DNA of 32,000 bases from Candidatus Thorarchaeota archaeon. Lineage in GTDB: Archaea > Asgardarchaeota > Heimdallarchaeia > Hodarchaeales > Hodarchaeaceae. The stretch spans positions 30,001-62,000 of the forward strand of contig JBHLRO010000014.1 of the NCBI GenBank assembly GCA_048882505.1. The letters run 5' to 3'. Shown one piece after another: positions 1 to 28,225 of the stretch (position 1 is the stretch's first letter; each line of letters starts with the position of its first letter). The translations under genes were made by a program, and so were the position numbers. The notes under the pieces were generated by a model that saw nothing but the letters and a program-made list of their open reading frames with translations, was not told the DNA's origin and searched no databases.

Positions 1-650
1 GGAGGAGCAGTGCGCCAGCTTGATCTCGCTTTGTTTGAATCTGAGTGAACACTAATGGGCGTGCGCGGCTACGATCAAAATGGACTTCGACCCAATCTTG
101 ATACATCCACACCCCGTCAATCCGGTTAGTATGCCCCATGGTGAAGCTAGCCGCATTGAAGGCCCCAGTGGATGCAACAGCAACATACCCAATAGTTTCG
201 ACCCTATTATGCGTAACGTGATTATCTTCCTCAATGAAGACACCTTGCATAGCTGATCGTGATACATCGTTAAATCTTACCCAGGACGGGGAGGTGCTGT
301 TCCTAGTTTGAAGTTGGGCCACAACGACTGGTTGACTGACAAAATTAGTGTTGAAGGCGTGATCATAGGCCCCCGTTCCGTTGTGAGTGTAAGATCCTAC
401 CTCTATATCTAATCCCGCTACAGAGTAATTTCCAGGTTTAAAGGCCACCCATTCGACGAGCTCATCAAATGCGGGGGCTGAGGCATTGATACCTTCGATT
501 TTCATCTCAAAACTTGCGGCTGTCACATTTGTGATGGCGACATATTCTCCTTGACTATCTTTGTCTGCTGCGGACTTCTTCTTAATCGAGGCCAAAATAA
601 CTGGAATGTAGGCCAAGGTATAGGGAAAGATCACCCGCAACCAGGTATCA
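1..650 (-). other. At least 3 tandem H-type-lectin-like repeats (~85 aa) in giant protein
   Basis: WLRVIFPYTLAYIPVILAS...ITNVTAASFEMKI...ELVEWVAFKPGNY; HAFNTNFVSQPVVVAQLQTRN...WVRFNDVS...FIEEDNHVTHNRVETIGYVAV; WVEVHFDRSRARPLVFTQIQT (truncated). Matches the F..F...PVV.A.LQT.N...V....F...EE...H..ETIGY.A repeat from memory. Confidence 0.7.
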
Positions 651-3600
651 TAGGGCACCATATCCACGGCGCCAGCGGCGCCGAAAATTTCGTCTGAACT
701 GGGGGTAAACACTCCGTTTATTGAGAATTCAGGTTTGCCATCGAAATTGGTATCATGCCCGAATCGGATATAGCCAGTAATCTCCTCATAATCGGTTACT
801 CCATCTTTATCGAAGTCGATAATGGACAGGGGATCGAGGAGGACATCAATATCTCCATCAGCATCAATATCGCTGGCGTAATATTCGGGAGTCTGACTTC
901 GATAATCATCTTTCTCACCGTCCATGTCAGTGTCGTAGTAGTCGTAGGTGTGATCGAATTCATCACGCACCGTAAGACCATCGCCATCCCAGTCAGCATA
1001 CTTCCAATAGAGCCAAATATCACTTTCATTTGAGGATTGGGAACCAATGACTTTCACATCATACCTGTCTTTGGGGTCTAATCCGAAGTGGAGTTCATAT
1101 ATGTCCCATATTCCGTCCCTGTCCGTATCGGGGTTGTTGGGATCCGTAGGGTCAAATTCCGTCTGGGGGCCATAGACCACGGCAGCGGCATCAATTGAGG
1201 TTTTGACCATGACATCGGCTTTATCGATAGTGCGGTTGGGGTACTGTTGGTTGAGGAGCGCTTTGGGTAACCCCATCACCTCTTCTACGTCCCAGAGACC
1301 GTCCGAATCGCTGTCTTTCTTGAGCGGGTTCGTGCTTGAATATGAAATAACGTCTAAGACGGTACCCCAGACTGGTCCGTTCTCATCCCAGTCAACAATC
1401 ACATCACGATCCCCGAAAAAGGATCCATAATATTCCTCGATATTGATCAGGGTGTCATTATTCTTATCGACGAACGCAAAATACTCCTCGTAGTCGGTCA
1501 AGCCATCCTCGTCGGAATCAGGGACAAAGGGTGAGGCGGTGCGCCAACAAGTGGGACATGTGCTCTTATTAGCAGGAACCCCAAACGTGGGATGAGTGCC
1601 ATTGTGCCAACCGTACGCAATGCCCGACGTACTATTGGTATCCCATTCATCATAGAAGACTCCGATTTCATATCCGTCAGGTAATTGATCAAAATCCGTA
1701 TCAGGATTGAGAGGATCGGTCAGATACTTGTATTTTTCATCAAAGTCGCCAATAAGATCTCCATCGGTATCGTAAATCCCAGGATGAGTCTCGTACATAA
1801 CCACAATATCGTAGTAGGTGGTGACACCTTCGGTGATCATTCCGATAGTAGAGGGCGCCGTATTTAGACTTAGATTGGCGACAAGATGACCATCCAATGA
1901 CAAAATCACTAGATTCTCGTATCCAGGAATGATATTGTCTTTCATCTTGAACAGGGTCATGTCATACCAGGTGTTGTACGTGAGATTGATCGGAAGGTCG
2001 GTCACTGAAGTGTTGGGTAGACCATCCTTCTCAACGTAGACTGTATTAGTCTCAATGTCTAACATAAAAGCGTGGGTATCAAATGTCAAACCTGCTCGTG
2101 CGTTTGGTCCTGCCATATCGGACGTAGTATTGACCAGATAGATCATCTCAGAGTAAATCCATCGGTCGTCATCCGCGGTAAAAGCAGTGGTTAAGGTTTC
2201 TCGACTGCCGGAATTCTGTGCAACCAAATACTTATTCGACATGTAAATGGCTGGATCAGGATAGGTACGGTCGAACTCAAGTTTGATGCTCTCCACTCGA
2301 ATGATATCCCATTCAGTCCGATCTACTGGCGCTTTAACTGTCACATTCATACCGTATATGTTCTGCCACGAGTTGTATGTGGTTAAGTTAATAATAGAGA
2401 CCTCGTGATACGTCCCGTTAGTGGTGGGAAGTGGATACAACACACCGTCAATATATACGTCTAAGGTGTGGTTAAATTCGTCTAGGTAGCGGGTATCTGT
2501 CGCTTTCAAATTCCACTTCTCAACTGTCCAGGTCACCTGTAATGTTGTGTTCTCTATTATGGACGGGTCGTTAATGTCATCGCATGTGGGCTGAAGTGGG
2601 CCTAAGTCAGGATCGCCACACAGGTTTCCAGGTGTTCCCACTGCATCCCAGGATCGGTTCATAAACTCGGGTAGGAAGACCCAATTCAAGGCAGCATACG
2701 TACCATTATCGATGTATTCTCGCATGGTGATACGGGCTTTCGGATCCCAGATTTGACCTTCTATGCTAAAGGTAGGATCGACCCCATCTTCCGTATCATT
2801 GTCTTCCACTTCTAGACCGTATTCCTCAAAACCCATTGAGTGACCGACGATTTGGGAGAATTTTCCCAGATTGGTTGCCATTGCGTCCCCGTACCATGTT
2901 CCCTGTTTGTCAAACATCACAGTGAAGGACGAGTTTGCTACAGGGGTAGTTGCATTGATATAAGAGGAATCTGACGGTTCCATCGATTTATAGTAATCAG
3001 CCCATGTGGTGTCATTTACATAGGAATAACCGTAGTTGGGGAATAAAGTATGGTGGGAATTCAAGAGTGGCACACCATCTTCGGTTACATTCCAATTTGC
3101 TGGATCACTAATCGTATCCCAAGGCCCGTCAGTCAGAAGGGAGGATGAATTATAATGCCAGAAACTATCCCCGAAAATGACCTCGTCTGTGTCATTTAAA
3201 CCATCGAAATCGCCATCACCGTTTGTTATATCGAAGGAGTAGGATGGAAAATCTAATTCGAATTCTTCCCTGTCCGACATTCCGTCAAAATCGGAATCGG
3301 GAAGAGTCATATCAGAACCATATATTGCCTCTAAGCCGTCCTTCAAGCCGTCACCGTCGAAGTCAGGAACGATCATTGCCAATACGCCCCATAGTTCCAG
3401 CTCGGTATCGAAGAGACCATCATCAGGGAAGTCAAAGGTCGGATGGCAGTCGAAATCATCACCACCAGGCGTGCAGGCCGCACCATAGTTCTGTAGAAAC
3501 CGTTCGTTCTCCATGATGTACTGGAGTTCAATTTCATTCTGAATCCCATCCCCATCCACGTCCTGCATTGAGACGAAATTGACCCCAAACACTGTATCGT

Positions 3601-6600
3601 TCACTCGTACCTCGGGAATTCCATCGGGGGTGCCTCCCACATTCCCTGTGTTGTCTGGGTATAACGATTCAGCATACCAGGGGATGTCAATGAAGTCACT
3701 AGGATGTGTGTGCAGATTGACGTTGACATTGATCACAGTTTGTCCCGCCACAGTACTTTGGGCTTTAATATAGTCAGAACTATTCGCAAAATACAAGGCA
3801 GCTAAGGCGGATCCATTTGGGAACATGGGTTGCCCAGGTTGCATGGGACCGCCAAAGATCGCGTTCTGAAGGTCTGTCAACGCGTCATCAATAGAATACA
3901 TACCTGGGTTCTTGTCATCCTTATCGATGTGATCGGGGATCAAGTCGCCATCCATGTCGCCATCCCAGTATCCTCCAAAGGATGCAAAAATTTTCTCAAA
4001 GCCAATATTGAAGAGAACGCCCGTAAGTCCAGAGAACAGTACTCCACGTATTCCTCCTGATGAAACGAAAAGGAACGACTGAGCTGTGAGGTGTACTACC
4101 GCAACAATCATATTAGTTAGTTCTTCGCGTGTTATGAGTTTTAAGTCATTCACAATGGTATCGAATAGTTGCTGTACTACGTAGACCCCAGACGATATCA
4201 GCCAGGTTCCAGGGTTATTTACCAATATGAAGTTCAGAACACCTGCTAATCCTTGAACCTCCGCGCCAAATTGGTTTGCGTAGGTACCTAGTCCCCGTAA
4301 TAGATCCTCTTGGAATCCCCAAGGTTGAACTTCTTGTCCTTCTTGGGGAATCAAGTAATCCATGATCGTCTCCGCGGTGTACTCTAGGACACTCTCAGGG
4401 TTAACGGTTGGTAAATTGGCCCCTCGGTTTTCCTCCTCTCGGAATATCTTCGGGAGGGGTGCTCCGTAATTCGACGAGATTGTCTTCCCCGTTGCTGCAT
4501 AGAGTGAAGCGTTATACTCTTCTCGAGACATCGTTGTCTGCCAATCAGGCCGCCCATCGAAATCCACATCTAAGAAAAGATCAGGATCCCGGCCTCGATG
4601 ATAAAAGGCTTCTTCGCCGTCATCCATATAATTGTTGTCGAAGAATGTCCTGGAATCTTCCCAGATTCCTAATTCGATGATATTATCGAAGTTGGTATCT
4701 TCAACCAGGAACCATTTCTTGACAGGACCACTCAGCAACCCCTGCTGATAGGCGGCTACATCAGGTAAAACCCCTGAGTTGTTCTGTTCCGTGAACCAAC
4801 CATTTGCTGGATCCCATAGCGTGTGATGTTTCTGGTAATAAACATCGGAACGGTTCTCTTCGGGGATGTCTGATCCCGTGTTAATGTGATAATAGTAATA
4901 GAAGTCCAAGGCTGGATCTATTCTTTTCGTTGTCCTTCTATCTCCGTAATCGACCCCAAATTCGTCTAAGTGGTTGATTTGTCCGTCTGAATTAAAGTCA
5001 AACTGGTAGAAATTCGTATTATTGACTAAAATGTCCTCGGACCGATTATGCCCATTCCCTGGAGTCGTGTCAACATATAACTCGAATTCGAAATTTCGTG
5101 TGGCATAGAACAGGCCATAGGACGCATCCGAGATATTTCCAGTGCTATAAATGTCAGTTGGTTCAAAGCTAGATACATTGGAAAGGGTTTTGACATTTAC
5201 GGGGAGCAGGTACGTTTTCCCAAGTTCATTCAATTCGAATAAATTCCAACTATTCTCGACGATATCGTCCCCGTCGTCTACCCAGGGGATCGTCTGGAAA
5301 TATTGGTAGTCTAATTTGTAACTCTTCACATAGATACCAGTAAAGACCCCTGTGATCATCTCCTCAATTGCTTCACTCAAGGGACCTGTCATTTTCTTTT
5401 GATAGGTTTTTCCCTTAACGGCCGCAGTAGATCCTAGTCGATTGTCGAACACATTCATTAAGAGATTCATACCTGGCATTTTTTCAATATCGGTCAAAAA
5501 GCCAATCATGGCCAAAGCCCATGCCAGACTCCCATTCCACACCTCCTCCCAGAAATCAGAGCCCATCATATCAGACCAGAGATCCGCAATGGACTCAACC
5601 ATATAATACCCAAAGATTGTTCCCAGGATACCACCCAAGGCAGCGAATGTGGACTGGATAAATGCCTCTTTAGTCGAAAGTTGGGCCTGATCTCCAAAGA
5701 AAACCTTACTTACCGACCTGCCAACCCGTGAACCACCCTGAGCCTGGATGGTGTTAATAATCTTTGTACCAACGACCTCATCGAGGATGTTTTGATCCCA
5801 GGGGACGTGCATCTTGAGACCTTGCGATCTTTCACGCCCTAACACTCTATGGGTTTGAGTCCACTCATTCAAGAAATACTTATCTCGACTCAGATAATTG
5901 GCTATCAACTCCTTCTTCGAATCGTCTGTGAAACGCAAGAATTCATCATATGTGATGTCATAGTACGCCATCAGGTTTCCAACAAACCCGTTATTCTCAT
6001 CCAGGAATGCACCCAGGTGCATTTCCGACTTCAATTCTGCTAGGATTGTCTCTTCCATTATCTGATTCCGTTCTGCCTCGGTGGAAAACATCATCTCCCA
6101 GAGATATACCTCATAGTCGTCGATCCCGAGATGATCCATCACCTGTTGTTCCACTTCAAAGTCTGCCCGCTGTTTTTGGAAAAAGGCATCAGTCATTGGA
6201 ACGATTTCATAGTCGCGGGTGAACGGGGCATTCAATCGGCACGACCCTGCACTGGTTTCGCAGGTGGGGCGTTCCAAACTCTTGATTACTAAGGCGCCCA
6301 AATTATCCCCTAAGACTAGGATGGTTCTATACGCGGTGTCGGTTTCTACCAACTGGACATCAAGATCAATCTCGGTGGGAACGTTATTGGTTCTGAGGAT
6401 CCGATTCAAAATGTCGCTGATACTAATACCCTGTTCATAAGAGTCGGCTTCGAGATATCGATCGCCAAAATGCTGTTGCAGGATGTCTGTAGGATCTATC
6501 CCGCTGAAGATATCCCTCTGTTCTAACTGGTTTACGAGGTTAATGACATCACCGAGGATCGCCTGACGTAAGAAGGTGGTGAAATATATGGCGCCCTCGA

Positions 6601-9600
6601 TTGGTATATCTACGAAGATCTGTGACAGATCTAACTGCTGGTGGCCCGAGGGATCATCTTGCCAGACCTGCGAGGGGTATTCAAAGAGTAATTTCGTGAG
6701 CATGGCATCCACTTTATCGTCGAGCACATCACGTGAGACGGATATTGTGCCTACGTGTTGTCGTCGGCTGCTATATTGTTGATAATGGTCAGCTACAGTT
6801 CTCAGCCCCATTCCAGGTAGATAGAAAGTATTTACGAGCGTTCCTGCTATTGTGCTGAGTTCGTCGATATTAGATGCTGAATCGACAGAAAATGCTATAT
6901 TGGCCTTGAGTGTGGAGACGGATACCTTGGGGTAATTATCCCAATAAATGACCGCTAGGTCATCCTGGAAAATCTTGTCGAAAATCGTGTTATCTGGGAT
7001 AAGTATTACCCCCGCTTGATTACGTCTAGTTTCCTCATTTCCCGATCCCCAGGCCTTGTCGATTGTAACTAGTCCCCTTGGTTGACCAAGGATCCTGATT
7101 TCAGTTGATGATATCGGTATTTTTCCTCCCAATCGTCGAATCTGAATTTGGGTTCCAACATAACTAATTAGTCGGCCTGTGCCTAACACTTGCTGTTGGG
7201 CATCTACAAATTCTACAAGGGCTCCAATATCGTTGGGATCGAACGGGGCATATCCCTGGTGGTCCACTGTCCCTACACTAGTTGACGGATTTCCCACTAC
7301 GTAATGTTGGGATATTGGGACTGAGCTATCATAAAACGGACTATTTTCGACTGCTCTATCAATGATTTCGAAGTAGTGTCGAACTAACGCTTCCTGCGCA
7401 TCTGGAAACGATAACCTGGAGATTGTATCTAGTATTTGAGCGCCACCATCGTCGGTTGTACGAATTGTAAGTTCCAGGTTTGGGGAACGAAGTAGTAAGT
7501 CGCTACCTTCGATTTTCGTGGCCAAATCTACCAAAATGTCTAGAACCGAGTTCTGATAATCATTAGCTCTACGTTTACGATTGAGGTACAAGGAAATCAT
7601 ATTCAGATTCAGTTTTTGATAAAGACGACTGGTTAATTTCGCAACTCCGTTATACATTGAGCGAATGGAACTCCATGCGTTAGGTGAATTCACACGTCCA
7701 ATCAGAGACATAATTTTTGATCGAAAACTTTCGGTATTTCTGAGAGTAGCTTGTATATCATCAAGATCTCTGCGAGGAGTATTTGACGATGGTTCAGGTA
7801 GATAGGACGCACCAAGCTCCCTCATCTGGTGTATTGCATTTCGACCTACGACTAGCGATTGTAAATCCCCGACGGTCATTCCTAGAGGTCCTCGTGTCGC
7901 TAAATCATTTGTCGCGAGAAGAGCGCCCATGTTTTGTTCCTGGAAAGATAACTCAAGAGAGATAATTCCCAAGAATCTTTTTGTATCCTGGATACTAGAG
8001 GTTGGAGTAGTTCTCTCAATAAAAAATTTGACGTTAGAGGGGTTTTGGACCTCAAAAATCCCATATTTTCCTACCCAAAGCCTCTTATCCAATTCTTCCC
8101 GTTCAGTATCTGTCAAACCAGCTCGAATTACGTTTAACTTTGTACGGGCGTCACTAGGTTTTATCTTCTCCCCTGCGCGTGCCTTCCATCGTTGATATAT
8201 CACATTCTTGTCTTGATCAGAAGCGGACAAATTATTAGGATCGTTGTTGTCAAGCGGCCCGATAAGGATCTCACCACTATCAATGAGTCTATCGATACTT
8301 GTCCATGAGAAATAACCGACATGGCGAACCCATTCTCCCGCCTGGTTTTTATAATAATACTCGACTAATCGGACAGCATCAACAAGCTGAAGGTTACCCT
8401 GTCCCAATTGCAGATTATATTCTCCTATTGTGTCTGGAACATCGGTGAACCTGCGATCATAGAGATAAACACCATGCGCGTCGTCTTTACCGAGTCCTAA
8501 TAGTGGGTCGGTAATGCCATCGTATCCGATATGGGGATTTGCGACCAAGGTGGTCAATATGAGCAAAGCTTGTTTTAATTCACGCTGATTTTGGTCAGAA
8601 ATCTGGATGCCAGCAAAGTCGATGAGAAGAGCTTTTCGTGCAGCCAGAGCTCGCTGAAATGTATCATAAGAACCCGGGTCAGCAGTAAAAAGGTAGTCTT
8701 TTCCGTCAACAGAAATGATGTGGGGTGGATCTGTTGTAAGAAAGTAGGGAAGTATTGGCACAGATGCGAAGGAAGCTATTACGGCCGTTGAAGGTGTTGA
8801 TATCGTCAAACCGCGATCATGAGCATTCCGTGTCGCGTCTCGAATGGACATCTGCCCTTCGAGAAGGAAATCACTAAGAAACTGATCATAATTATCATCG
8901 GGAGTAGGAATTCCGGATACCAAATTTTGTGGGGGATATCGTACGTTTGGATATATATTACGAAGTGGGGAAAAAGGTGCCCAATTAATGGGTAAAGTAA
9001 CATGTAAAATGTCTGTACCCCCCTGATCTTGGTGTATTTGCTGGACAATTTGTTCCACCGTAGGCAGGCGGGATGTTGGATCATCTGTATCACCTTGTGG
9101 GGGTGTATGAAGATGAGCGACTATTCCTTCGCGATATCCTATTATTCTATTATCCTGATCTCTGATCTGGTTAGTAATGCTGATATCTCGTTCATATTTA
9201 CCATTTTGATCAATTCTGCCTGGAAGGAAACGTTTATTGCCAGTACGATACCAAACATCAAACCTACTAGGCTCAATGCGAATTCCCGTCTTGTCAATTG
9301 GAGTGCCCTCCAGATCCTCACCGTCAACAATGTTCTGTTGCTCCATGGCTCTTCTGCCTATTAACGAGTTCTTGACAAGACTCACTACAGATTGGATGAT
9401 GTTTCGTCCAAAAGATGAAACCTTAGAGGGGCGATTAGGAACATTGGAACCTGCAACAGGCTGTCCACTCATCTCGGATTCGGACTGAATCACTGGTTCG
9501 CCTTCATACACCCCATAATTTTCAGTGATCATTCTAAATGAGTGTCCGACTGCACTGGCATCAGGATGGTTTTCCAGGATACTGAGAAAAGTCAATATCT

Positions 9601-12600
9601 TGCTAACGAAATCTCTAGCCGGACTTCGGAGGGGGAGATCGTTATCAAGGTCATTATCCGCGAATACGAAGAAATTGGCTCCAATATTTGGATATTTAGT
9701 TAACAATTCTTGTAACTCGGGTTCTGTCAACAAATCCTCCTTTTTCCGGCTGATATTATTCTTACGGAGCTGATACACCAGTTTGTTCACCTCACTATAA
9801 TCCCAATCAAGAAAGTGGGAATCCCCCGGTAAGGCGTCCTTATCGTACTCTTTAGTTATTATTAGGATAACGATGTGTTCGTCTCCTCGAGCATCCTTAA
9901 CTCGTACTGGCTCCAACTTAGCAAACTCATGGGTGATATACTCGGAGTCAATGGTTTCCGTTACCATTATTTGATTCGCTGTTTGGACAAGATTTCCATC
10001 AACTCCCGAATAGTCATCACTTGCGAACAACTTACTCATCATTTGTTTGATATTACTAATGACCAGTGTCACTCCTGTCTTGGTACTGAATTCTAGGTCA
10101 GAACCTGAGAGTTGTCCTTCTAATGTGGCCCCCAAGGAGGTTTCAGGATCTTCCCGCAAGATTCTGGTACGAAAAGTACCTTTAGCTAAATCTTCGATAA
10201 GTTCTATGACCAAAGATTGAGTGGTATATCGGCCAGACTCGTCAGGGGTGAATTGTCTTTGCAACTCGGCTTCTATGGTCGCGGTTCGCGTATCATCTAG
10301 ATTCAATAAACTTCTCGCAAATTCTCCATACGGAATGGTTATTGTTTCCCCAGAAGGATCTAATCGTCTAAAATTCAGCATCACCTTTCCGTCTCGAAGG
10401 GTAAAATGTAACCTTTGATTGATCTTCCTCGTAAACTTGTACTTTACGGTTCCTCCAAAATTAGACTGGAGATAGCTGAGAAACTGATTTATGGTCCTTG
10501 TCCTGCGCAGCTGTTTGGAAGCACTGGTTGTGCGTAGTAGGTTCTGTTTCTCGTGGGTTGACCGTTGATAGATGGCCCTCGTTCCATCACGAAACGGACG
10601 TTTTGGAGTTTTCATCAACCAACCTTCCGTTACTAACTTCTTGAATCTCTGTAAGATCGCATTTGTTTTTGTACCCACATATTGGACAATCCTTCCGCCT
10701 GCGCTGGTTTTGATCCCAACAACATGTTTCCATATAGTTTTGCCAGTCTTTTGTAGAACAGGGTATTGCACATTCTGAATGGCCTCATCTATCTGATTTT
10801 CACCACCGAGATATGGGATGGACAGATGCCTGGTCTTTTCTTCAAATGTTTTCTCCCACGTTCTCACGGTTTGTGCTGAATTAAGCGTTAATAACTCATC
10901 GCGCGGTGTGCCTTCCCAAAGATAGCCAAGAATGGGATCATGGATCTGCCGATACACATAATTCGGAGCAACTTCTATGATTTGCTGGGTAAACGGATCA
11001 ATACGCAATACATTCGTATTTTCTCCGTAAGGAGAGGCGCGTCCTGATCGATCGGCGAGAAATTCTGGTGTGAATTCTCGATCCCCATCTGAGTTGACTT
11101 GAGTGAGAGGGCCATTCGCTAGCTTATAAGATTCGAGTTCATTCCCAAATCTGTATAGACCTAGAGTGCTAAGTACCTCTTTTGTCGGGCCCTCGTCCAA
11201 AAGTTTAGTATCAAAAAATGTCTTGAAATAGTCTTGTACGGCCTGAGGTTGGTTAGCAAGAGATTTCGGGTTGAGCTTGGAGCTATCCTCAAACTCAATA
11301 AACGATTGAATTTGAGGGGTGATAATGTTAGCATCGGAATAGAAATATTGGACTGCTAGTCTAAAGAACTCTTCTTGGCTGACCCAATCCATTAATCCCT
11401 TATATAAAAAGAATTTTCGAAGTGAATAAATTTCAGATCCTCCCATCGAACCTAAAGTGGCATCCTGACTAGTCACTCGGCCGTCTTTAACCCATCCAGT
11501 AATCGGGATTTGGATGGTAGTACGTCCTGCTGGATCCTCTCCAGGTTCTAACCAGGCATACGTGCCATCTGAGGTAAGAACTGCTGTCACGATACGATGC
11601 AATCCTGGTATCCAAGCAAAGGGGATACTTCCCCAGGAACTAGTTGGTTGTGTGAATGAAATCTGGCCTGTTCGAATATCCCACCAGGCGGGGCGACGTG
11701 TGTTGCTTCCTTCCTCTTGGTTTCCGTCACGTTGATAATTATAGTTTGCATCCTGAGCTGCAATGGGGGAAGGATTCTGCCATCCGTTTGGCCCAGGAGA
11801 AACATCGAGGTCACGCGCAACGACGCGTGTGCCAGAGATTCCAATATCCGCAGAGATCTCACGGACGAATTGAAAACGCGAAGCTCTCCCTGATGGGTGT
11901 CGAACCACAAAGCCGTTATCGATAGCGCTTTGGAAGGCCAAGTCAAATTGAGGTTCATGGGTGCCGTAGATTTGTTTCATGGTTAAGACGGGGTGATTAT
12001 TGGGATTCTGGGGATCAGGATCCTCTAGAGCGCGAGTAGTCTGGTCATCTTCCCACCATGCCTTCGTGGATCCTGGTCGAAATACTGAAAAGATGACTTT
12101 ATCGTTCCACTTAGACCCCGTCGGATCTGGGAATGTGGGATCCTGTTGATGGAGATTAAGAGCCTCTGCGTAGGTGACACAGAAAACTTTGCCATCATGC
12201 TGGACGTATTTATACATGAAAGTATTTTGCCATTCTTGATCGATGGCTGATCCTGTCTTAGGGTTTTTTATACCTCTCATTCGTTGATGGTAAGATTTAA
12301 GAGAAAGTAATTGCCAGGAGAACTGATTGTCCCTAGTACTGCCTGATCCGGCCATTTGTTTAGGGACACTGACCGCCGCGTATGTTGTATCGGACGAATC
12401 GATAATACCCTCACTCATCTCCGCGATTAACTCCCCAGTCTCAGGATGGGTAAGGACTTCTCGTGCTACTTGGGATTTCGCATTGAAGAATGCCGCCGAT
12501 GTAAGGAAAACAAGCGGAGTACCTGTTAACCAACGATCACGCTGACTCCTGCCATCATACGCAGGATCACTCACCTCAGTAACTTGAGAAATGTGTCGGT

Positions 12601-15600
12601 AATCCCCATTCCCAATGTCTCGCATCTCATACAGGGTGCGACTCAACGTAAGACCTTGGAGGGGACTACCTTGATCGGTTGGATATTCATAAGTAATGTC
12701 GGAAGTGAGTCCACGATATACCTCAAGGAGTTGGAAACTGATCTCGACGAGTCTGGGATTGTCTGAAATTTCTTGAAGAGAGATGGTGTCGTCTGCGGCC
12801 TGCGTGAATAGTTCCAAATAATCAAATTTGGCTTCTGAGAGGTCTGAGAACTGACGTATGGTGAGGGATGCATAATTGGTGTCAAAATCGGACTGTGTAA
12901 TGAATTGCCCATCGAATTCCAATAGGGAAGGATCGTCCGTGTCTTCTCTAAACTTGAACACGCGGTAACCTTGATACAGTAGGTTCCACTTTTCGAAAAC
13001 TTCTAGTAGGAGGGTGTTTTTAGGGATCTTAATCAGTCCGACTGAGATAGGATCATAAAGGTATAGGTCATGGGGTATCTGGAAATCCTCAATCTTCAAC
13101 AAGAGCGTCTTAAAAATGGAGGCGAGCTGGAAAAAACTATATTCTTGGGCGGCGGTGTTCCCCTCGATTTGAAGGTCACCCTTTTGTGCGGCAGATCCAG
13201 TAATTTTGTCATTTAATGATTCCCCTGGGAGGGAATTTTGATGCGTAGTTTCCATCGGGGTCAATATATTATCCAAGTGGTCTGTATTTCGAAAGATCCT
13301 GCCTAACTTTACTAATCGTTCTTTCTTCAGTTGACGTCCTGCATCTGTCTCCATGTCCTCGTTAGGGGAATAGCCATAGTTAGGATCATTCATGACCTTC
13401 TCTAGGACATCCATGGTGTCAGGAGACCGAGCTAAGCCTCGGACTATGAAAAAAGATTCGGGATTAGAGCTTTGTATCCTGACACTCCAAGAAAAGAACT
13501 CGGCGTCAACCTGAAGAAATTCGCTGGCCATCCCAAGTTTCTTTGCCATAGAGTAATCAATAAACAAGTCCAACGGTTTACAGTAGAGCTTAATATCCCG
13601 TCGTGTATCAATCCACGACAGACCTACGTGGTTAGTTCGAGTATATCGTGAGGTGAAAAATGGAATACCTTGGGCTAGACCATCGCGAATACTACCTGAT
13701 TTGTCTTCGACCCATTCGGCGGTGGTTGAATCCCAAAACATTCCATCTGTTGTGGCTAAGGAGAATTTACCTAATAGCAGTGCCCCTTCACTTCCGTAAT
13801 GAGGCGTAAACGACCAGGCCATCCAATTATGCATCAGCCCCTCCGTCTTGATTGGTGAGTAGATAGTCCCCTCATCCCCAATAATTGAATCAACAAGGGC
13901 AAGCATCGGGGAATCTTGCCAATCAGAGTCTTGGGGGCGGGGAACTTGACTTTGCTTATAATCCTCCTCGGTCATCCAGTTATATTGGTCATCACTCCCG
14001 TCACTTTGCAAATCGATAGGGAAGGGTTTTCTGATTTCATAATGTTCGTGAATGTCGGGTAAGACGTCTCGTAAAACCCCCTCTGGTGTTATCCGCTGTA
14101 ATGGGGGGATGTATCTTACACTTCCAGCTGTTGGGGTGAGATCCACTCGTTGGGTCCATAGATCTCTGATTTCCCAGAACCATTGCGAAAACAGTAATAG
14201 GTCCGAGCTGCAGGCCCCACAATCTGATGGTCTGGGCGGGACGGCCTGTTGATGGTACATAAAATCGCGGAACCACTTGATTCGTTGTTGTTCGGTTCCA
14301 ATTAAGTCATTGTGATTAAGATGGAGTAGGAGAAAATGGTAAAAATTTTCATAGGGTTTGGTCTCATCATCAGTAGAGAACAATGGTTCGAAAATGGTGA
14401 CATACTCCCGTTCGGGCCCAGGCTGGCCATTGTCGAGGAGAACCACATACTCATTTTGCGCTGCAAAGTCTCCTGTCAGATCCGAAGAAAAGGCAAAATT
14501 GAATAGGTAATCCTGGATTTGGGCAAGCTCGAATTGCGCAAATTCATCCAAACGGATCAAAGCAGAGTTGTCGTATAACACAAAGGTACGTTGAATCCGT
14601 TCATCTTCACCAAGACTGGTCTGGTCATCCGCTATGGCAAGAACTTTAGATCCGAGTGGGATGTCTTGATCGGGTGTATCGGGAAACGTAATCATGCCAC
14701 TTTGGATACTTTCCTTGAATTCACGTTGGTTCATCCACTGCACTGTTCCGTCCGCAAACACAATTCGCCGCAAACGGTGACTAACGACACCTCTCGTCCC
14801 AGAATTTTGGGAGACCAGTATTTGATCCATTAGGGATTTTATTAAACCTCCTGCAAAATTTTGGTATTCCGTTAGGACGATAGGCACTCCTAGACTTACG
14901 AGATACCCGTAATGTCCAGAGGTGGGTAGAACGAGTGGAAGAGACAGGAATCGCTGTAAAAGTGCCGAATCACTGTTAAGGAATTCGGAACCAATTGTGG
15001 AAGCCCGAATGGATTTGTGGATAACACGCTCTTCTAGATCCCTGTCAAAATCAATGTCAATAATGTTTCCATCTCTATCCGTAAAACCTCCAATGGAGAC
15101 CAAATACGTGAGGAAATCCATTCGATCAATAAACCATGTTTTTATTCCAGCTGCCTGTAATATGGTATCCAGGGGGCTTTTTACCGCAAATATAGTAATT
15201 TCATCCTGGATTGAATTAATGTCGGGATCGACTTCCTGATTGCTCAGGGATTGGTCAAACAGCTGATTCAGAAGCATGCCTTGGAGCCATATACTCTCAT
15301 CCCACACAATTTGCCCATTTACTTCATAAATAACGCGTGTTTCCAAAAAAGCATCTCGCATACGCATAGTAACAACCCCATCGGGATGTTGGGTTCCAAG
15401 CGTATCTGCAAGCCCTCCAGCAATGGCTCCATTTATAACGGATGAAACAGCATCGGCTAAAGGATGGGTCTCACTTTCGGAGACAAATTGGGAACCTTGG
15501 GCGGAAATTATCACCTCCTCATCTTGGATTACGGGTGTTGTTTCTCCAAACAAACCGTAAAGGGATTCATCCATATCTTTGATTGCATCGACTGGGATGA

Positions 15601-18600
15601 TCAGATCCCACGTTAATGGAGATGAGGGGTTATTAGGATCCTTTGGGCGCAATCTGATTTGGGAGGTCTCAATGATTTGTGTAAACATCTGTTTAATCGA
15701 TTCATCCAGATTAGCAATCCGAGCAGCACTGCTTTTTAACCCAAAAGGATTTTCTTTTGTTCTTATAGGGTTCTCTTGGGATGCTCGTGTAATAATATTC
15801 AGGATATTACCGAGTTCTGCCAGATCAGTAGCAGAGATGCCAGAATTACTCCCTTGTTTCCTCATGATGTTTTGGACGATACTCATAAAGGCGTCGTAAT
15901 CAATTGCATTACCCGTATCACTGGGGGTATTGGAATCTTCGAGAAGGTTAACAACATCATTTACGACTTGCTCGAGAAATTCAACCTGTAATTGAGGTAT
16001 ACTCGGAAAATTTTCAAATTTTGCTCCGACAGCGTTATCCAAAGCCAGAAGTAAATTCTTGGCGAGTAACCGGCTTTCTGTGACTGGGGAATTGGCTAAA
16101 CCCGTAATCAATTGTAGAAAGTGCTGATAACTCGAACGATCTCTGGCACTGGATTCACTCGATGTATCGGACATGAAAAACGTATCCCCAAATGTAAGAT
16201 CAGAGACGGAAATATCGTTATAAGATTGGAGTAAGGCATCCGCAAACACGGCCAATCCGCTGGTCTCTTTATTCCACTGATCGACTTCTACTTTGCTGCC
16301 CATTGCATCGAAATTTCGGACAAAACGCGTCAGGATTCCCAACCATCCCATAGCTTGTTGGTCATAGTCGTCGTCTAACCCGTTATCGGGAATCCCCCAT
16401 TGTCGATAATACCTACCTGTTGGGTTGGGGGTGCCACTGTCGTCCACACGTTGTCGTCCGTCGTCCCTGAAGGTACCATCGATCACGTCCTTCTCATCTG
16501 CCCCCACGATGTATTCCTCATTGAGATCATTGGGGGATACCAATAATTCCATGAGGGACGGGAGGGTTTGGACTAATTGCTCCAATCCAATTTGGATTAT
16601 AGAATATAATCCCCCTGACAGGACTTCCTGAATGGTATCAAATAGATCACTCACGATGGGGAGAGCGTCCATGAACCCACCGACAAGTCCCTGCAGGGTG
16701 TCCATAATCCATCCTAATTCAACCCCAGGGCGATCTGCTTGTGATGCGGTAACAACAAAATTTAAGACATTCCCTAATTGGTATTTTGGGGCAATTACTT
16801 GTCCGAGCGGCCCATCACCGTACCCCTCGAAGATACCATCCTGATTTCGATCTTGAAGGACGACGAACAGTTCGGTAGGGTCGGCAAAAATCTGTTTCGT
16901 ACTTAGTCCTAAATTTGTGGGAGATTTTCCGACATCATCCCAGTGGATCGCGATAATAATATCTTTTCCTTGTAAGGGCCCCATAGCACTGGATCCTTTG
17001 ACGAGATGCAGACTGAAGGTATCATAATCGGGGTCAACCAGCGCGGTCGATTCTCTCACCCCTTGGATAATCAATCGGTTACTAGAAATATCAGGATCGG
17101 GAATACTACTGTACCGAGTCCCCGCTAGCATACTGGAGGTCAAGGTGTATTTCGAGGTCTCCCCTGCGTCCAACGCATAGCTATACCATTTCCGACCCCC
17201 GTAACTCACATTGGTAGATTCCTCCGCTCCGTAAAATGACGAAATGGCCTGGTACGCCGCCCCATCCTTGCCCTTTTCCATATAAGAAACGGTTCCTGCA
17301 TACCCAGGGGACCACCACTTAGATTCCTCGCGCCCCCCAAGATTAACAGAATACCCGTGTTCTATAAACCCACTGAATTGGGAACACGGATTACAATAAC
17401 TGTTACTGGACGTATCTTTGGCAAAAGTCGGGTAGTCCGTACTTTGTGACCAAACAGGTGAAACTTTATAGACAGAAATCATGTCTACCATACTAACTAA
17501 GCTTAGTAGAATTTGCCCCCAGCCATCGACGCTCTCAACGTTAATCTGTCCCCCACTTCGGGCATCGAAGATATCTTGAACCGCCTCAGCCCATGCTACC
17601 TCATGATATTCTTCCCCTTGCCACGGGGAACTCGGAGAGTCGGGATATTCAAAATCAGTGGTATTAAAATCATAATCGGTCATGAATAAGGCCAGGAGTA
17701 GGTTTTCAAATTCACTCCACTCGACAATGTTGGAGTATTGGCGGGCTGCCTGAGGGAAATCGGCAAGACTGTTGCCTTGAATTACGTCTCCAGCCCCGAC
17801 ACTATAGGAGACTGATCCACTTCCAGTGTAATTGAATTCCTCCAGTAAATTATCAGCCAGTTGGGATTGTAACGTTTTAAGCCCAGTATAGTAGGGTTGG
17901 CCACCCTCAGTATATTTTACGGAGAGTGGTACCCCCGTCCCGAAATAACCTAAGCTCGGTAATCCAAACTCACCTGAAGTGGCGACCCGATCGTGGTTGA
18001 CGTCATACCAAAAAACGTAATCGTTGGGCCCCTTTCCTAGATTGATGGATTGTCCCATTTTCATTGGAATGGAATCATCTGCCCAAATGCTTGAGCTAGG
18101 CCAAAGGGAATCTCCACTATAGACTGGAATGGAAGGTGATGAGACCCCTATTATGCTCGCATGCGATCCGACATCTACAACCGAGCTCATTAGTGGGATC
18201 GGAATCGGGGCGACTCGATCCGAGATTTGAAAGTTACTGATTTCAGTGGTCTGTTCCCCATAGTTATAAAACCAGACGTTTTCTAAGGTGGGGTAACTTT
18301 GACTATTTAAAATGGGAATATAGATGTTACTTCCAACTAATTCCCCATCTAGGAAGACATTCACTAATTCCGTAGTTTCGTCATAAAAAACATCTACATG
18401 ATGCCATGACCAGGGTTGGACTCTGACAACTCCATAGTCTGGTTGACTCCCATAGTCCAACGGAGAATGGGTATAGGTTAATTCATGAAAGTACCGATCC
18501 ATCCCACCAAGGGCATTCCAGAGTGACCCACCAGGCCAATGCCGTAGTTGGGCCCCGTCACCTGGGATCAATGTGTTATCTGGGTACATGCTGTAGTAGT

Positions 18601-21025: not shown

Positions 21026-21087
21026 GCGACAGTCCAATCCTTAAACGAAATCTACGGTATAGCGAGAAGTATTCCTTTCTCATCGGA

Positions 21088-21095
21088 TATTTATA
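21088..21095 (-). promoter_or_regulatory. Archaeal TATA box of giant gene (TATAAATA)
   Basis: Plus strand tatttata equals TATAAATA on the minus strand, starting 70 nt upstream of ATG 21025. Confidence 0.7.
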
Positions 21096-21099
21096 GCCC

Positions 21100-21122
21100 T
21101 ATGATCTGAAAATTGGATCATA
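21100..21122. promoter_or_regulatory. Palindromic operator copy 1: TATGATC-N9-GATCATA
   Basis: Perfect 7-bp arms, 4 bp from the TATA box; near-identical copy at 22837-22859. Confidence 0.75.
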
Positions 21123-21290
21123 CTCCCTCTTAAGCTATTTTCCCATGAAAATACACCGTTAGAATAAACATAATCCCAGGCAAAATATATCGAGACCAAT
21201 GTGAAAATACTATGAAAGAAAACGGATTTGAATGGAGATCAGATAGCTGAATTCTTTTAAGGGAAGATAAGTGAACTTGGATTGAACTCT

Positions 21291-22808
21291 ATGCTTTTTG
21301 GGACACGGGCGCCTTTTACCCTAATGGTCGTATCCCTTATTTTATTCATTTCAGTCCCTTCAAGCTTGTGCTCTTCCCTAATACAATCTTATTCAAAACC
21401 CGTAAGCGGGGTACCTAATGATTTAATAAGCAGACACTCAACAGTACAGATTAATACTCACGGTTCAACTGACATCAGCTTGTCATCGAAACAGGGTCTA
21501 CATCAATATCAATTAGGGGACACCGAAGTTTTCAGCATAGATACAAAAACTAATTTCTCTGCCACCTGTAGTCTAATCGGACAAGATGTCTATATCTTCC
21601 AAGACCAGCGTATTTCTGTGTCTTTGAGCATAGAGGAGATATCTAACACAATTACGGCTAATATTACCCCCTTATTGAATTCATATTTCGGGCCTATCCC
21701 CGATTTTGATTACAATGGGAGGTTTATCCTGGTTCTAACGGACCTCCCATCGGGGCTTATCGCATTTTTCGACCCCGTGGATCTAACGTGGTCTGGATTC
21801 CAAGGAGAAATCATTTATGTTGATGCGTACGAATTTAGTTATGAGGCCCTAGTCCACGAGCTCCAACATCTCCTGCACTTCGTTGCTGACTCTTTTGAAG
21901 AAATATGGCTCAATGAAGGGTTTTCGGTCTATGCAGAGTATCTCTATCGCAAGGATCTTTCCTCCTCGGAATTGTTAGAAAAGATACAATATCCACAGGG
22001 AACTTCCTTAATCTATTGGGATAATTCACCCAATCGAGTCACCAGTTATGACTGCGTGAGGGGATTCATGTATTATTTGATGGAAAAATTCGGACATACG
22101 ATTCTTAGACAGATCTATTATGCTGAAAAAGCTGGAGTTCCATTGCATGGATTAGAATCAATCTTGTACACTTTACAAGAAAATAGTCTTCATTACTCCG
22201 CAAGCGAGCTATTTCAGGAATGGCAAATTGCGATGCATCTGGGTAATTCATCGAATGCATTGAACCGAACCTGGTTATTCGATAATTTCACCGTAGTTCC
22301 ATCCCTCTATGTCTTTCCCTCTGATAATTTCTGGGGGAACGATTATCCGTATCAAGAGCATCATTCTATTTTGCCAATGGCCTCTATATCGTTTTATTTC
22401 CATGATTTCCCTGATGGGAACCAAATTAATGTTATTCTTACTTCCTCCAAAATCGATGAAAAGCTGAGTCTCAATTTAAGTTCGACCTTGATCAAAGTGT
22501 ACAATAATAATGAATATATTATTGAGGATTATTATCTTGATCAAAAGGGGGTATTAAGTATAAACTTAAATCAGACCCAGGATAAATTCTTGGGATTCTA
22601 CTTAGTGGTCTATCTTTCAGGATTATTGGAGGGAGGTTATCTTAATGACATCCCTGAGATTGCTAAAGGGATTAATTTCGAATTACGGATTGAAGCGGGA
22701 CAACGGGATCGTATATTTTTACCTATCATGCTACTTGCATTATTGGGAGTTGTTGTTATGGGATTTCTGGCGGTTAAAGGTACCAAGAGGCTGATGAGGG
22801 TAGAATAA
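21291..22808 (+). CDS. Membrane-anchored secreted zinc metallopeptidase (gluzincin, M30/hyicolysin-like)
   Basis: Signal peptide, LVHELQHLLH (21855-21869) followed by EEIWLNEGFSVYAEY, and C-terminal TM (IFLPIMLLALLGVVVMGFLAV) plus KGTKR. The track starts at TTG 21282; I prefer the in-frame ATG at 21291. Confidence 0.85.
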   Translation: MLFGTRAPFTLMVVSLILFISVPSSLCSSLIQSYSKPVSGVPNDLISRHSTVQINTHGSTDISLSSKQGLHQYQLGDTEVFSIDTKTNFSATCSLIGQDVYIFQDQRISVSLSIEEISNTITANITPLLNSYFGPIPDFDYNGRFILVLTDLPSGLIAFFDPVDLTWSGFQGEIIYVDAYEFSYEALVHELQHLLHFVADSFEEIWLNEGFSVYAEYLYRKDLSSSELLEKIQYPQGTSLIYWDNSPNRVTSYDCVRGFMYYLMEKFGHTILRQIYYAEKAGVPLHGLESILYTLQENSLHYSASELFQEWQIAMHLGNSSNALNRTWLFDNFTVVPSLYVFPSDNFWGNDYPYQEHHSILPMASISFYFHDFPDGNQINVILTSSKIDEKLSLNLSSTLIKVYNNNEYIIEDYYLDQKGVLSINLNQTQDKFLGFYLVVYLSGLLEGGYLNDIPEIAKGINFELRIEAGQRDRIFLPIMLLALLGVVVMGFLAVKGTKRLMRVE

Positions 22809-27448: not shown

Positions 27449-28225
27449 ATGGTAGCAACATTGAAACAGTTCAATTACAAGGATTTAGGAGCTATTCTAA
27501 TTATCCTATTTACCATCTCAATAATTTGGTTGGTCTTTTTCTCCCCCAAAGATCAGGTCACCGATCCAGTGGCCATCCTCGAGTCGGCACCTTTTCTAGT
27601 TGGAGCTTTTTTATCGTCCCCGATGTTCTTCTTCCTGATACTTGGTGTTCTCATATATCTAGTTGGTAGTCCTTTGATGTTAGTTCTCTCGAAACCTATT
27701 TTGAATAAATGTGAGTATTGTACGAGTTTGAGGGGTGATGAGGAACCGTATTTAGTAAATGGGCATTGCGTTAATTGCAATCTTCTCATTTGTTCTGAAT
27801 GTTTTAGTCATACGAAGCGTAAGACAGGTTGTCCTAACTGTGGCGCTCAAAAGTATAAGTTTCGCAAAAGATTAGGTTATTTCCGTCTTCGGAAGAATGA
27901 ATGTGGATTTTGCACTCCGATAAGATCGGTCACATCTCCTCTTATCTCGAATGTTCAATGTAGAGGATGTCGGAGAATAATGTGCCACAAATGCTTCCGT
28001 TATGAAAAGAATGACAAAAAATATGGATGTCCGAAGTGTGGGAGTATCGAATTCACTTCAGGAGTGACGGTGGCGTACACCCGTTTACCCCGTTTAAAGA
28101 GAAGGATACATAAAACGCGAAAACGGGTAACCAAGAAATTAGTCCCCTTACAAAGCCAAATAACTAAAAAAAATAACCCCTCTACGGAAATGGTTGAAAA
28201 AGAGGCATACCCCTTCAAGAAGTGA
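27449..28225 (+). CDS. Membrane protein (2-3 N-terminal TM) with two tandem C8 zinc fingers (FYVE/PHD/RING-like) and basic tail
   Basis: CEYC-x15-CVNC-x4-CSEC-x9-CPNC (27710-27841) and CGFC-x15-CRGC-x4-CHKC-x11-CPKC (27902-28039); K/R-rich linker and tail. Start abuts the upstream stop (TAG ATG). Confidence 0.85.
   Translation: MVATLKQFNYKDLGAILIILFTISIIWLVFFSPKDQVTDPVAILESAPFLVGAFLSSPMFFFLILGVLIYLVGSPLMLVLSKPILNKCEYCTSLRGDEEPYLVNGHCVNCNLLICSECFSHTKRKTGCPNCGAQKYKFRKRLGYFRLRKNECGFCTPIRSVTSPLISNVQCRGCRRIMCHKCFRYEKNDKKYGCPKCGSIEFTSGVTVAYTRLPRLKRRIHKTRKRVTKKLVPLQSQITKKNNPSTEMVEKEAYPFKK

Follow-up and report, generated by a model that had tools for sequence, protein, structure and literature searches.

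One minus-strand open reading frame (ORF) dominates the 32,000-nucleotide stretch analysed here (the window; G000:C14:30001-62000, from contig JBHLRO010000014.1 of the Candidatus Thorarchaeota archaeon assembly GCA_048882505.1), in which it runs from position 21037 to position 2 and then leaves the window, and a stretch of about 3,890 amino acids (aa) of its product (aa 1277-5167) is depleted tenfold in N-glycosylation sequons (N-x-S/T, where x is not Pro). The depletion is specific to this motif and statistically robust, and we consider it probable that this stretch, the core, is exported past the glycosylation enzyme AglB/STT3 and that purifying selection keeps it free of glycans. An earlier note on this DNA had given the protein about 7,000 aa; followed beyond the window, the ORF encodes 14,728 aa, and we refer to its product as the giant.

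By computation, aa 1-1278 carry 8 sequons, aa 1279-5166 carry 2 and aa 5167-7012 carry 40, in agreement with the manual count of the earlier note, whose other figures for the core (two sequons, NIS at window position 9757 and NLS at 8233, 177 asparagines and five N-P-S/T) are all reproduced. The roughly 20 sequons that it expected at an assumed 13% or so of S+T were an underestimate, as the computed composition (S+T 14.5%, P 4.7%) raises the expectation to 24.4-24.5, and the sequons stay far below either figure. Shuffling of the core gives a mean of 24.5 sequons (standard deviation 4.5; z of -5.0), with 2 or fewer in none of the 2,000 shuffles and a Poisson probability of 7e-9. Both forms of the motif contribute to the deficit in this segment (desert 1), N-x-T with 0 against 11.4 expected and N-x-S with 2 against 13.1. 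Control motifs stand near chance (observed/expected): [ST]-x-N 21/25.5, N-[ST] 25/25.5, N-x-x-[ST] 30/25.6, D-x-[ST] 46/44, Q-x-[ST] 28/31 and N-x-[AG] 21/20.4, with K-x-[ST] likewise at chance. The N-P-[ST] motif, which is not usable by AglB, occurs 5 times against 1.2 expected, an excess that is only weakly significant, since the whole proteome runs at 1.5-2.0 times expectation for this motif. Because D-x-S/T and K-x-S/T, whose first codon is one base away from that of Asn, are at chance, a nucleotide-level bias is rejected as the cause.

The depletion is unique within the genome, for which 3,244 ORFs were called. The 2,071 ORFs without transmembrane (TM) segments have a sequon observed-to-expected ratio (O/E) of 0.92, and the cytoplasmic tails of 43 sequon-rich bitopic surface proteins carry 18 sequons against 15.9 expected (O/E 1.13); the premise of the earlier note, that a cytoplasmic domain should sit at chance, thus holds here, and depletion as a general habit of cytoplasmic tails is rejected. 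When ORFs without TM segments are joined at random into 5,000 concatenations of 3,888 aa, none is as low as 2 (first percentile 8.8, minimum 2.9). The O/E is 1.3-1.5 for ORFs that do have TM segments or signals, and exported proteins differ from cytoplasmic ones above all in N-x-T (O/E 1.8 versus 0.93) and less in N-x-S (1.2 versus 0.91). In the giant itself, aa 5168-12671 carry 189 sequons against 89.7 expected, of which N-x-T accounts for 117 against 47.6. The two largest sequon-free runs of the proteome are both found in the giant, at aa 1277-3760, where 14.8 sequons are expected, and at aa 12672-14332, where 14.4 are, and the third-largest (8.1 expected) lies in a paralogue of the latter. 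In a scan statistic over 200 whole-proteome shuffles, the largest run never exceeds 10.9 expected sequons (mean 6.8), against 16.3 observed, and both deserts of the giant exceed all 200 shuffles. Neither outcome that the earlier note had named as a refutation, a count in line with shuffled sequence or a like depletion in ordinary cytoplasmic proteins, is observed. An apparent desert in C1:203018 proved to be an artefact of a TSP3-type repeat. We also note a 928-aa beta-helix-like surface protein (G000:C7:68261-71047, minus strand) with 19 sequons in its first half and none in aa 484-882 (7.4 expected); its sequon-free half is borderline against the proteome-wide null. A depletion that is specific to the motif, in a genome whose cytoplasmic proteins stand at chance, suggests that the segment encounters AglB and that its glycosylation is selected against.

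The second desert, which lies beyond the window (G000:C14:8042-13024), is a bare module in a clearly extracellular context of the same protein. It contains no sequon, its control motifs are at chance, its flanks are sequon-rich, and hydrophobicity and free-energy (dG) scans find no TM-grade segment bordering it. The module holds two Laminin_G_3 (LamG) domains (PF13385, E 8.9e-33, within aa 12600-14728; contig C14:11159-11605 and 12428-12958) and immunoglobulin (Ig)-like repeats. Of the seven Ig-like copies in the sequon-rich sequence immediately before the desert, five retain the sequon F-x-x-N-[VA]-[TS]-D, which is missing from the copies inside the desert (...ITAYN..., ...WYAYD... and ...AEFTD...). 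That LamG domains never carry sequons is rejected as an explanation, as those elsewhere in the genome do carry them (30 against 37.6 expected, O/E 0.80). The paralogue at C56:1073-5395, with 50-69% identity, is sequon-free over the homologous 950 aa. As a locus, G000:C56:953-5395 is a partial duplicate of the last 1,450 aa or so of the giant, with stops at its 5' side, an open part of 1,440 aa and no signal sequence, and the copy may be decaying.

On the other side of the core, aa 1-1632 form a module (the N-module) that has two intact paralogues in the genome (G000:C38:16039-21228 and G000:C44:213-5399, of 1,729 and 1,728 aa) and a third copy that is decayed and contains stops (G000:C66:2076-3495); no copy is present among 82 other genomes of the class. 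Residues 12-30, the signal anchor for Sec export, lie within the range of the genuine membrane anchors of this genome and are the sole segment of the giant to reach their hydrophobicity. Across the three N-module copies, N-x-T has an O/E of 1.55 and N-x-S of 0.64, and 8 sequon columns are common to at least two copies, compared with 2-4 columns for each of five comparably abundant control motifs; D-x-S/T shares 7, but this motif is about twice as frequent. The N-module is exposed to AglB, because its pattern of N-x-T and N-x-S matches the exported signature and its sequon columns are conserved. Residue N1276 is conserved in all three copies, and desert 1 begins after it; the paralogues, too, are sequon-free from the equivalent of about aa 1277 to their ends (0 versus 3.8 expected). 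The giant has lost sequons kept by both paralogues, twice by an Asn-to-Asp change with the Thr retained (DAT and DFT).

Depletion of N-x-S/T requires a reader of that motif. The genome encodes a match to STT3 (PF02516) on contig C24, at 167.8 bits and above the cut-off, and glycoproteomics has demonstrated the use of N-x-S/T in an Asgard archaeon (PMC11284389). A search of the genome for a cytoplasmic N-glycosyltransferase of the GT41 type gave none, and such an enzyme is rejected as the reader. With STT3 encoded, GT41 not found, the upstream module exposed to AglB and desert 2 extracellular, we infer that the core, too, is exported and kept bare. The gene would then encode a giant, N-terminally anchored surface protein of a Hodarchaeales-type Asgard archaeon, predicted to be heavily N-glycosylated, whose chain, exported via Sec, would pass AglB/STT3 and be modified at accessible N-x-S/T sites. 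In the stalk-like parts, selection would have enriched sequons about twofold, mostly as N-x-T, and two modules, the 3,890-aa core and the 1,660-aa LamG-bearing module near the distal end, would have been purged of them, as an exported segment could stay bare only by not encoding sequons. The bare surface would most likely serve protein-protein or ligand contacts, interdomain docking or access of a processing protease, and a glycan might do harm there by disturbing tight packing or partner binding, processing access or a membrane interaction.

The core itself is an orphan. A protein homologue search with aa 1278-5166 returns none, HMMER finds 0 matches for aa 2400-3599 among 1.84 billion representatives, and scans of metagenome and viral contigs for the core find none; the 82 class genomes give only one weak hit, in the nearest relative (G061:C127), where the C-terminal 382 aa of a truncated ORF match aa 1882-2108. 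Pfam, NCBIfam, PHROGs and PADLOC have no match for aa 1278-5200 and give no toxin, pore-forming, protease or translocation family, the PDB sequences have none for the core, and the ESM Atlas features of the core are of low recognition, with no usable match. AlphaFold2 models are unusable, with a predicted local distance difference test (pLDDT) of 33 for aa 1640-2839 and of 36 for aa 1400-1700 together with two paralogues. Comparison of the core with itself shows no internal repeats, and no catalytic or nucleotide-binding motifs were found in it.

A single independent Logan contig, from the probable source run, covers window positions 1200-21100 with 0 differences, which rejects a mis-assembly, and the sequence is identical in 3 DNA runs of one study, hence there is no polymorphism among them. 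A search for RNA or proteome data from this organism returned none. The reading frame stays open, and along the whole gene, the core included, codon usage matches the genome and gives an even coding signal; a non-coding or intron-like insert is therefore rejected. Of 21 genomes of the genus, 20 have an orthologue of a housekeeping gene that lies on the contig of the giant.

A desert is also present in one of four giant LamG-bearing ORFs from genomes of the same genus, the other three having none; of the 6 giants scanned in the genus that reach 5,000 aa or more, 2 have a desert. This ORF (G067:C57; L051:3-4418, minus strand) encodes at least 11,809 aa and runs off its contig; its ectodomain is sequon-rich (183 against 115 expected), and its terminal 1,472 aa contain no sequon against 10.5 expected, which is only marginally significant after correction for the gaps examined. 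Within the sequon-free end lie two TM-like segments and the motif GYIYKW...VYIGQA, which is GIY-YIG-like; Pfam finds nothing in this end, and its nearest ESM Atlas clusters are GIY-YIG nucleases at 0.85-0.87, which we treat only as a lead. This end is not homologous to the core, and the desert is terminal, not internal. It suggests that sequon deserts recur in giant proteins of this lineage.

The main rival to an exported and bare core is a cytoplasmic loop, held between membrane segments at about aa 1443-1500 and aa 5129-5147, which would lack sequons for a non-routine reason such as avoidance of a glycosylation trap after weakly hydrophobic segments have allowed it to slip through the translocon, or a cytoplasmic reader of N-x-S/T. 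The earlier note had placed hydrophobic segments close to both boundaries of the desert, and this holds on the C-terminal side, where the Gly-rich segment aa 5129-5147 is a marginal TM candidate, but only weakly on the N-terminal side. Hessa-type dG sums are approximate and are read only relative to the C-terminal anchors of the same genome (-3.5 to +2), against which aa 5129-5147 scores 3.07 and the N-side stretch above 6.5, weaker than any anchor. The latter stretch, amphipathic and acidic in character, is situated some 170 aa into the desert, and the sequence that follows is strongly acidic, not basic; the remaining hydrophobic peaks have a dG of at least 4.3 and occur at the rate found in soluble ORFs, and the hydrophobicity and dG scans show no convincing TM segment between the N-module and the core. 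Several observations do weigh against an exported core and for the loop. The segment aa 5129-5147 stands exactly at the end of the desert, flanked by basic residues on its N-terminal side and by acidic ones on its C-terminal side, as for a TM segment with its N-terminus inside and its C-terminus outside, and the first sequon lies 21 aa further on. In the paralogues, a more hydrophobic stretch at about aa 1460-1520 precedes basic, sequon-free tails. The core is richer in K+R than the rest of the giant, and aa 3001-4500 are nearly neutral within an otherwise acidic protein. A composition classifier built for this genome (area under the curve 0.94, the same without N, S and T) scores aa 2401-2700, 3301-3900 and 4201-4500 as cytoplasm-like, although most core windows (9-10 of 13) come out as exported-like, which supports export. 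In the relative, the sequon-free end starts near a TM-like segment and holds the nuclease-like region. We also note that the core, having no homologues, does not allow selection to be measured across species, and that the LamG domains with sequons elsewhere in the genome leave desert 2 unexplained by any simple domain rule. Against the loop, a cytoplasmic location alone predicts about 22 sequons, no GT41 was found, and desert 2 is bare without any flanking TM segment, and we consider the loop rather unlikely. In sum, the proposal of the earlier note that a segment meeting Sec and AglB is selected to stay bare is partly supported, above all by the tenfold, motif-specific depletion with N-P-S/T spared, and we consider the extracytoplasmic location of the core probable.

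As an example of such a segment, the earlier note had named cargo to be threaded into a target cell or membrane, which finds no direct support. Here the Gly-rich segments would insert, after export, into the membrane of another cell and the bare core would be threaded across it. MARTX and polymorphic or contact-dependent toxins are very large exported proteins whose central or terminal module crosses the target membrane, where a bulky modification would hinder passage. So strong a depletion would fit a narrow conduit, the segments that close the core are marginally hydrophobic and Gly-rich, fast-evolving conflict proteins are often orphans as the core is, and the sequon-free end of the relative joins TM-like helices to a GIY-YIG-like region (Atlas 0.87, a lead only). 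However, the searches found no family, repeat type, processing protease or immunity gene of those toxins, and the likeness is by analogy only: no toxin, pore-forming, protease or translocation family was matched, no catalytic motifs were found in the core, a gene on the same strand that might code for an immunity protein is missing immediately downstream, desert 2 lacks hydrophobic flanks, and comparable hydrophobic segments are as frequent in soluble ORFs. This cargo is quite improbable, and it is very doubtful that sequon-free modules of giant Asgard glycoproteins in general leave the surface of the producer and cross another membrane, with the giant of the relative as a second case; if they did, archaea would have their own counterpart of toxin delivery by MARTX or contact-dependent systems. 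That the desert is instead a leftover of a sequon-poor source, or an accident of chance or of the nucleotide sequence, with no present selection, is highly improbable. The absence of homologues in the 82 class genomes and the large protein libraries does leave the history of the core unread, but no ordinary class of the proteome is depleted tenfold, D-x-S/T and K-x-S/T at chance rule out a bias in the DNA, the codon usage fits the genome along the whole gene, and the shuffles and the scan statistic exclude chance.

The features of the giant within the window are collected in the table. Residues 6800-6818 (window 583-639, minus strand) are strongly hydrophobic, followed by KKK, and resemble the C-terminal anchors of neighbouring surface proteins; they cannot span a membrane, because sequon-rich stretches lie on both sides, and hydrophobic peaks of this kind are consequently unreliable in the giant. 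The segment may be a relic of a gene fusion. At the far end of the protein, the last 230 aa or so (G000:C14:6854-7540) contain ...VNYGGHAID...FNTCFGEG..., with a His...Cys spacing that recalls caspase/gingipain-type peptidases; Pfam gives nothing for these residues at E <= 1. The next gene downstream (C14:5009-6784) is convergent, and its product is sequon-rich and anchored. Two anchored, sequon-rich proteins with an HExxH metalloprotease motif (window 21282-22808 and 28222-30966, plus strand) flank the operon that adjoins the giant gene, and they may be enzymes that process surface proteins. One of the two, with 914 aa, has a paralogue at C23, and just 2 of the 21 genus genomes contain homologues of it.

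Table. Features of the giant ORF in the window (dG, free energy; KD, Kyte–Doolittle hydropathy)
Feature	Residues (aa)	Window position (strand)	Remarks
Giant ORF, window part	1-7012	2..21037 (-)	runs on past the window start to C14:6854; total 14,728 aa
N-terminal signal anchor (LYYISLALFFVVGAFATAY)	12-30	20948..21004 (-)	KD 1.79; Hessa-type dG sum 0.75
N-module ectodomain	31-1276	17210..20947 (-)	8 sequons, about chance overall, N-x-T bias; positions common with paralogues C38 and C44 (~39% identity)
Sequon desert 1	1277-5167	5537..17209 (-)	2 sequons vs 24.5 expected; N-P-S/T 5 vs 1.2
Desert part homologous to paralogues	1277-1632	16142..17209 (-)	amphipathic acidic stretch aa 1443-1500; conserved DDGRQ...NGLDDDYDQ
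Orphan core	~1633-5125	5663..16141 (-)	non-repetitive, no family; only weak match aa 1882-2108
Residual sequon N3761 (KNNISRKK)	3761	9755..9757 (-)	N-x-S type
Residual sequon N4269 (PNNLSASD)	4269	8231..8233 (-)	N-x-S type
Gly-rich hydrophobic segment, C-terminal desert edge	5129-5147	5597..5653 (-)	KD 1.45; dG sum 3.07; marginal TM candidate
First post-desert sequon N5168 (WNGS)	5168	5534..5536 (-)	
Hydrophobic hairpin-like pair	5640-5684	3986..4120 (-)	sequons on either side
Start of sequon-rich region	5169-7012	2..5533 (-)	39 sequons vs ~15.5 expected; DxDxDG/TSP3-like calcium-binding loops

Sequon density can be read here as an evolutionary record of which parts of the largest protein of an uncultured archaeon need a glycan coat and which need to be bare, and it marks some 3,500 aa without a known family as being under a functional constraint that acts at least on glycosylation. 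The scan statistic is simple and genome-wide, and it offers a way to find functional modules and to constrain topology in giant surface proteins that homology and structure methods cannot currently read.

Like the huge archaeal Laminin_G_3 proteins (PMC11573180) and halomucin-type giants, the protein exceeds 5,000 aa and combines Laminin_G_3 domains, Ig-like arrays and calcium-binding loops. It differs from the surveyed proteins in its length, 14,728 aa being well beyond what is usual, in LamG domains placed close to the C-terminus and not the N-terminus, and in about 3,500 aa that belong to no family; the survey sections consulted do not discuss region-specific sequon avoidance. Another parallel is with eukaryotic secretory proteins, on which positive and negative sequon selection both act, BiP/Kar2 having lost sequons (Lopez Medus et al. 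2017, PMC5562741). As in that system, sequons in the giant are enriched where exposure to the oligosaccharyltransferase is useful and nearly eliminated where a glycan would do harm, parts that face the cytosol stand at the random expectation, and parts of one gene may differ in their sequon regime. The eukaryotic cases concern buried sites and whole small proteins, whereas here a contiguous 3,890 aa, and a further 1,660 aa, have been purged inside an archaeal chain that is otherwise enriched twofold. Desert 1 adds to a known kind of evolutionary signature a new archaeal case that is unusually large and sharp, and the dual sequon selection of the eukaryotic secretory pathway acts, very sharply, also in a close archaeal relative of eukaryotes.

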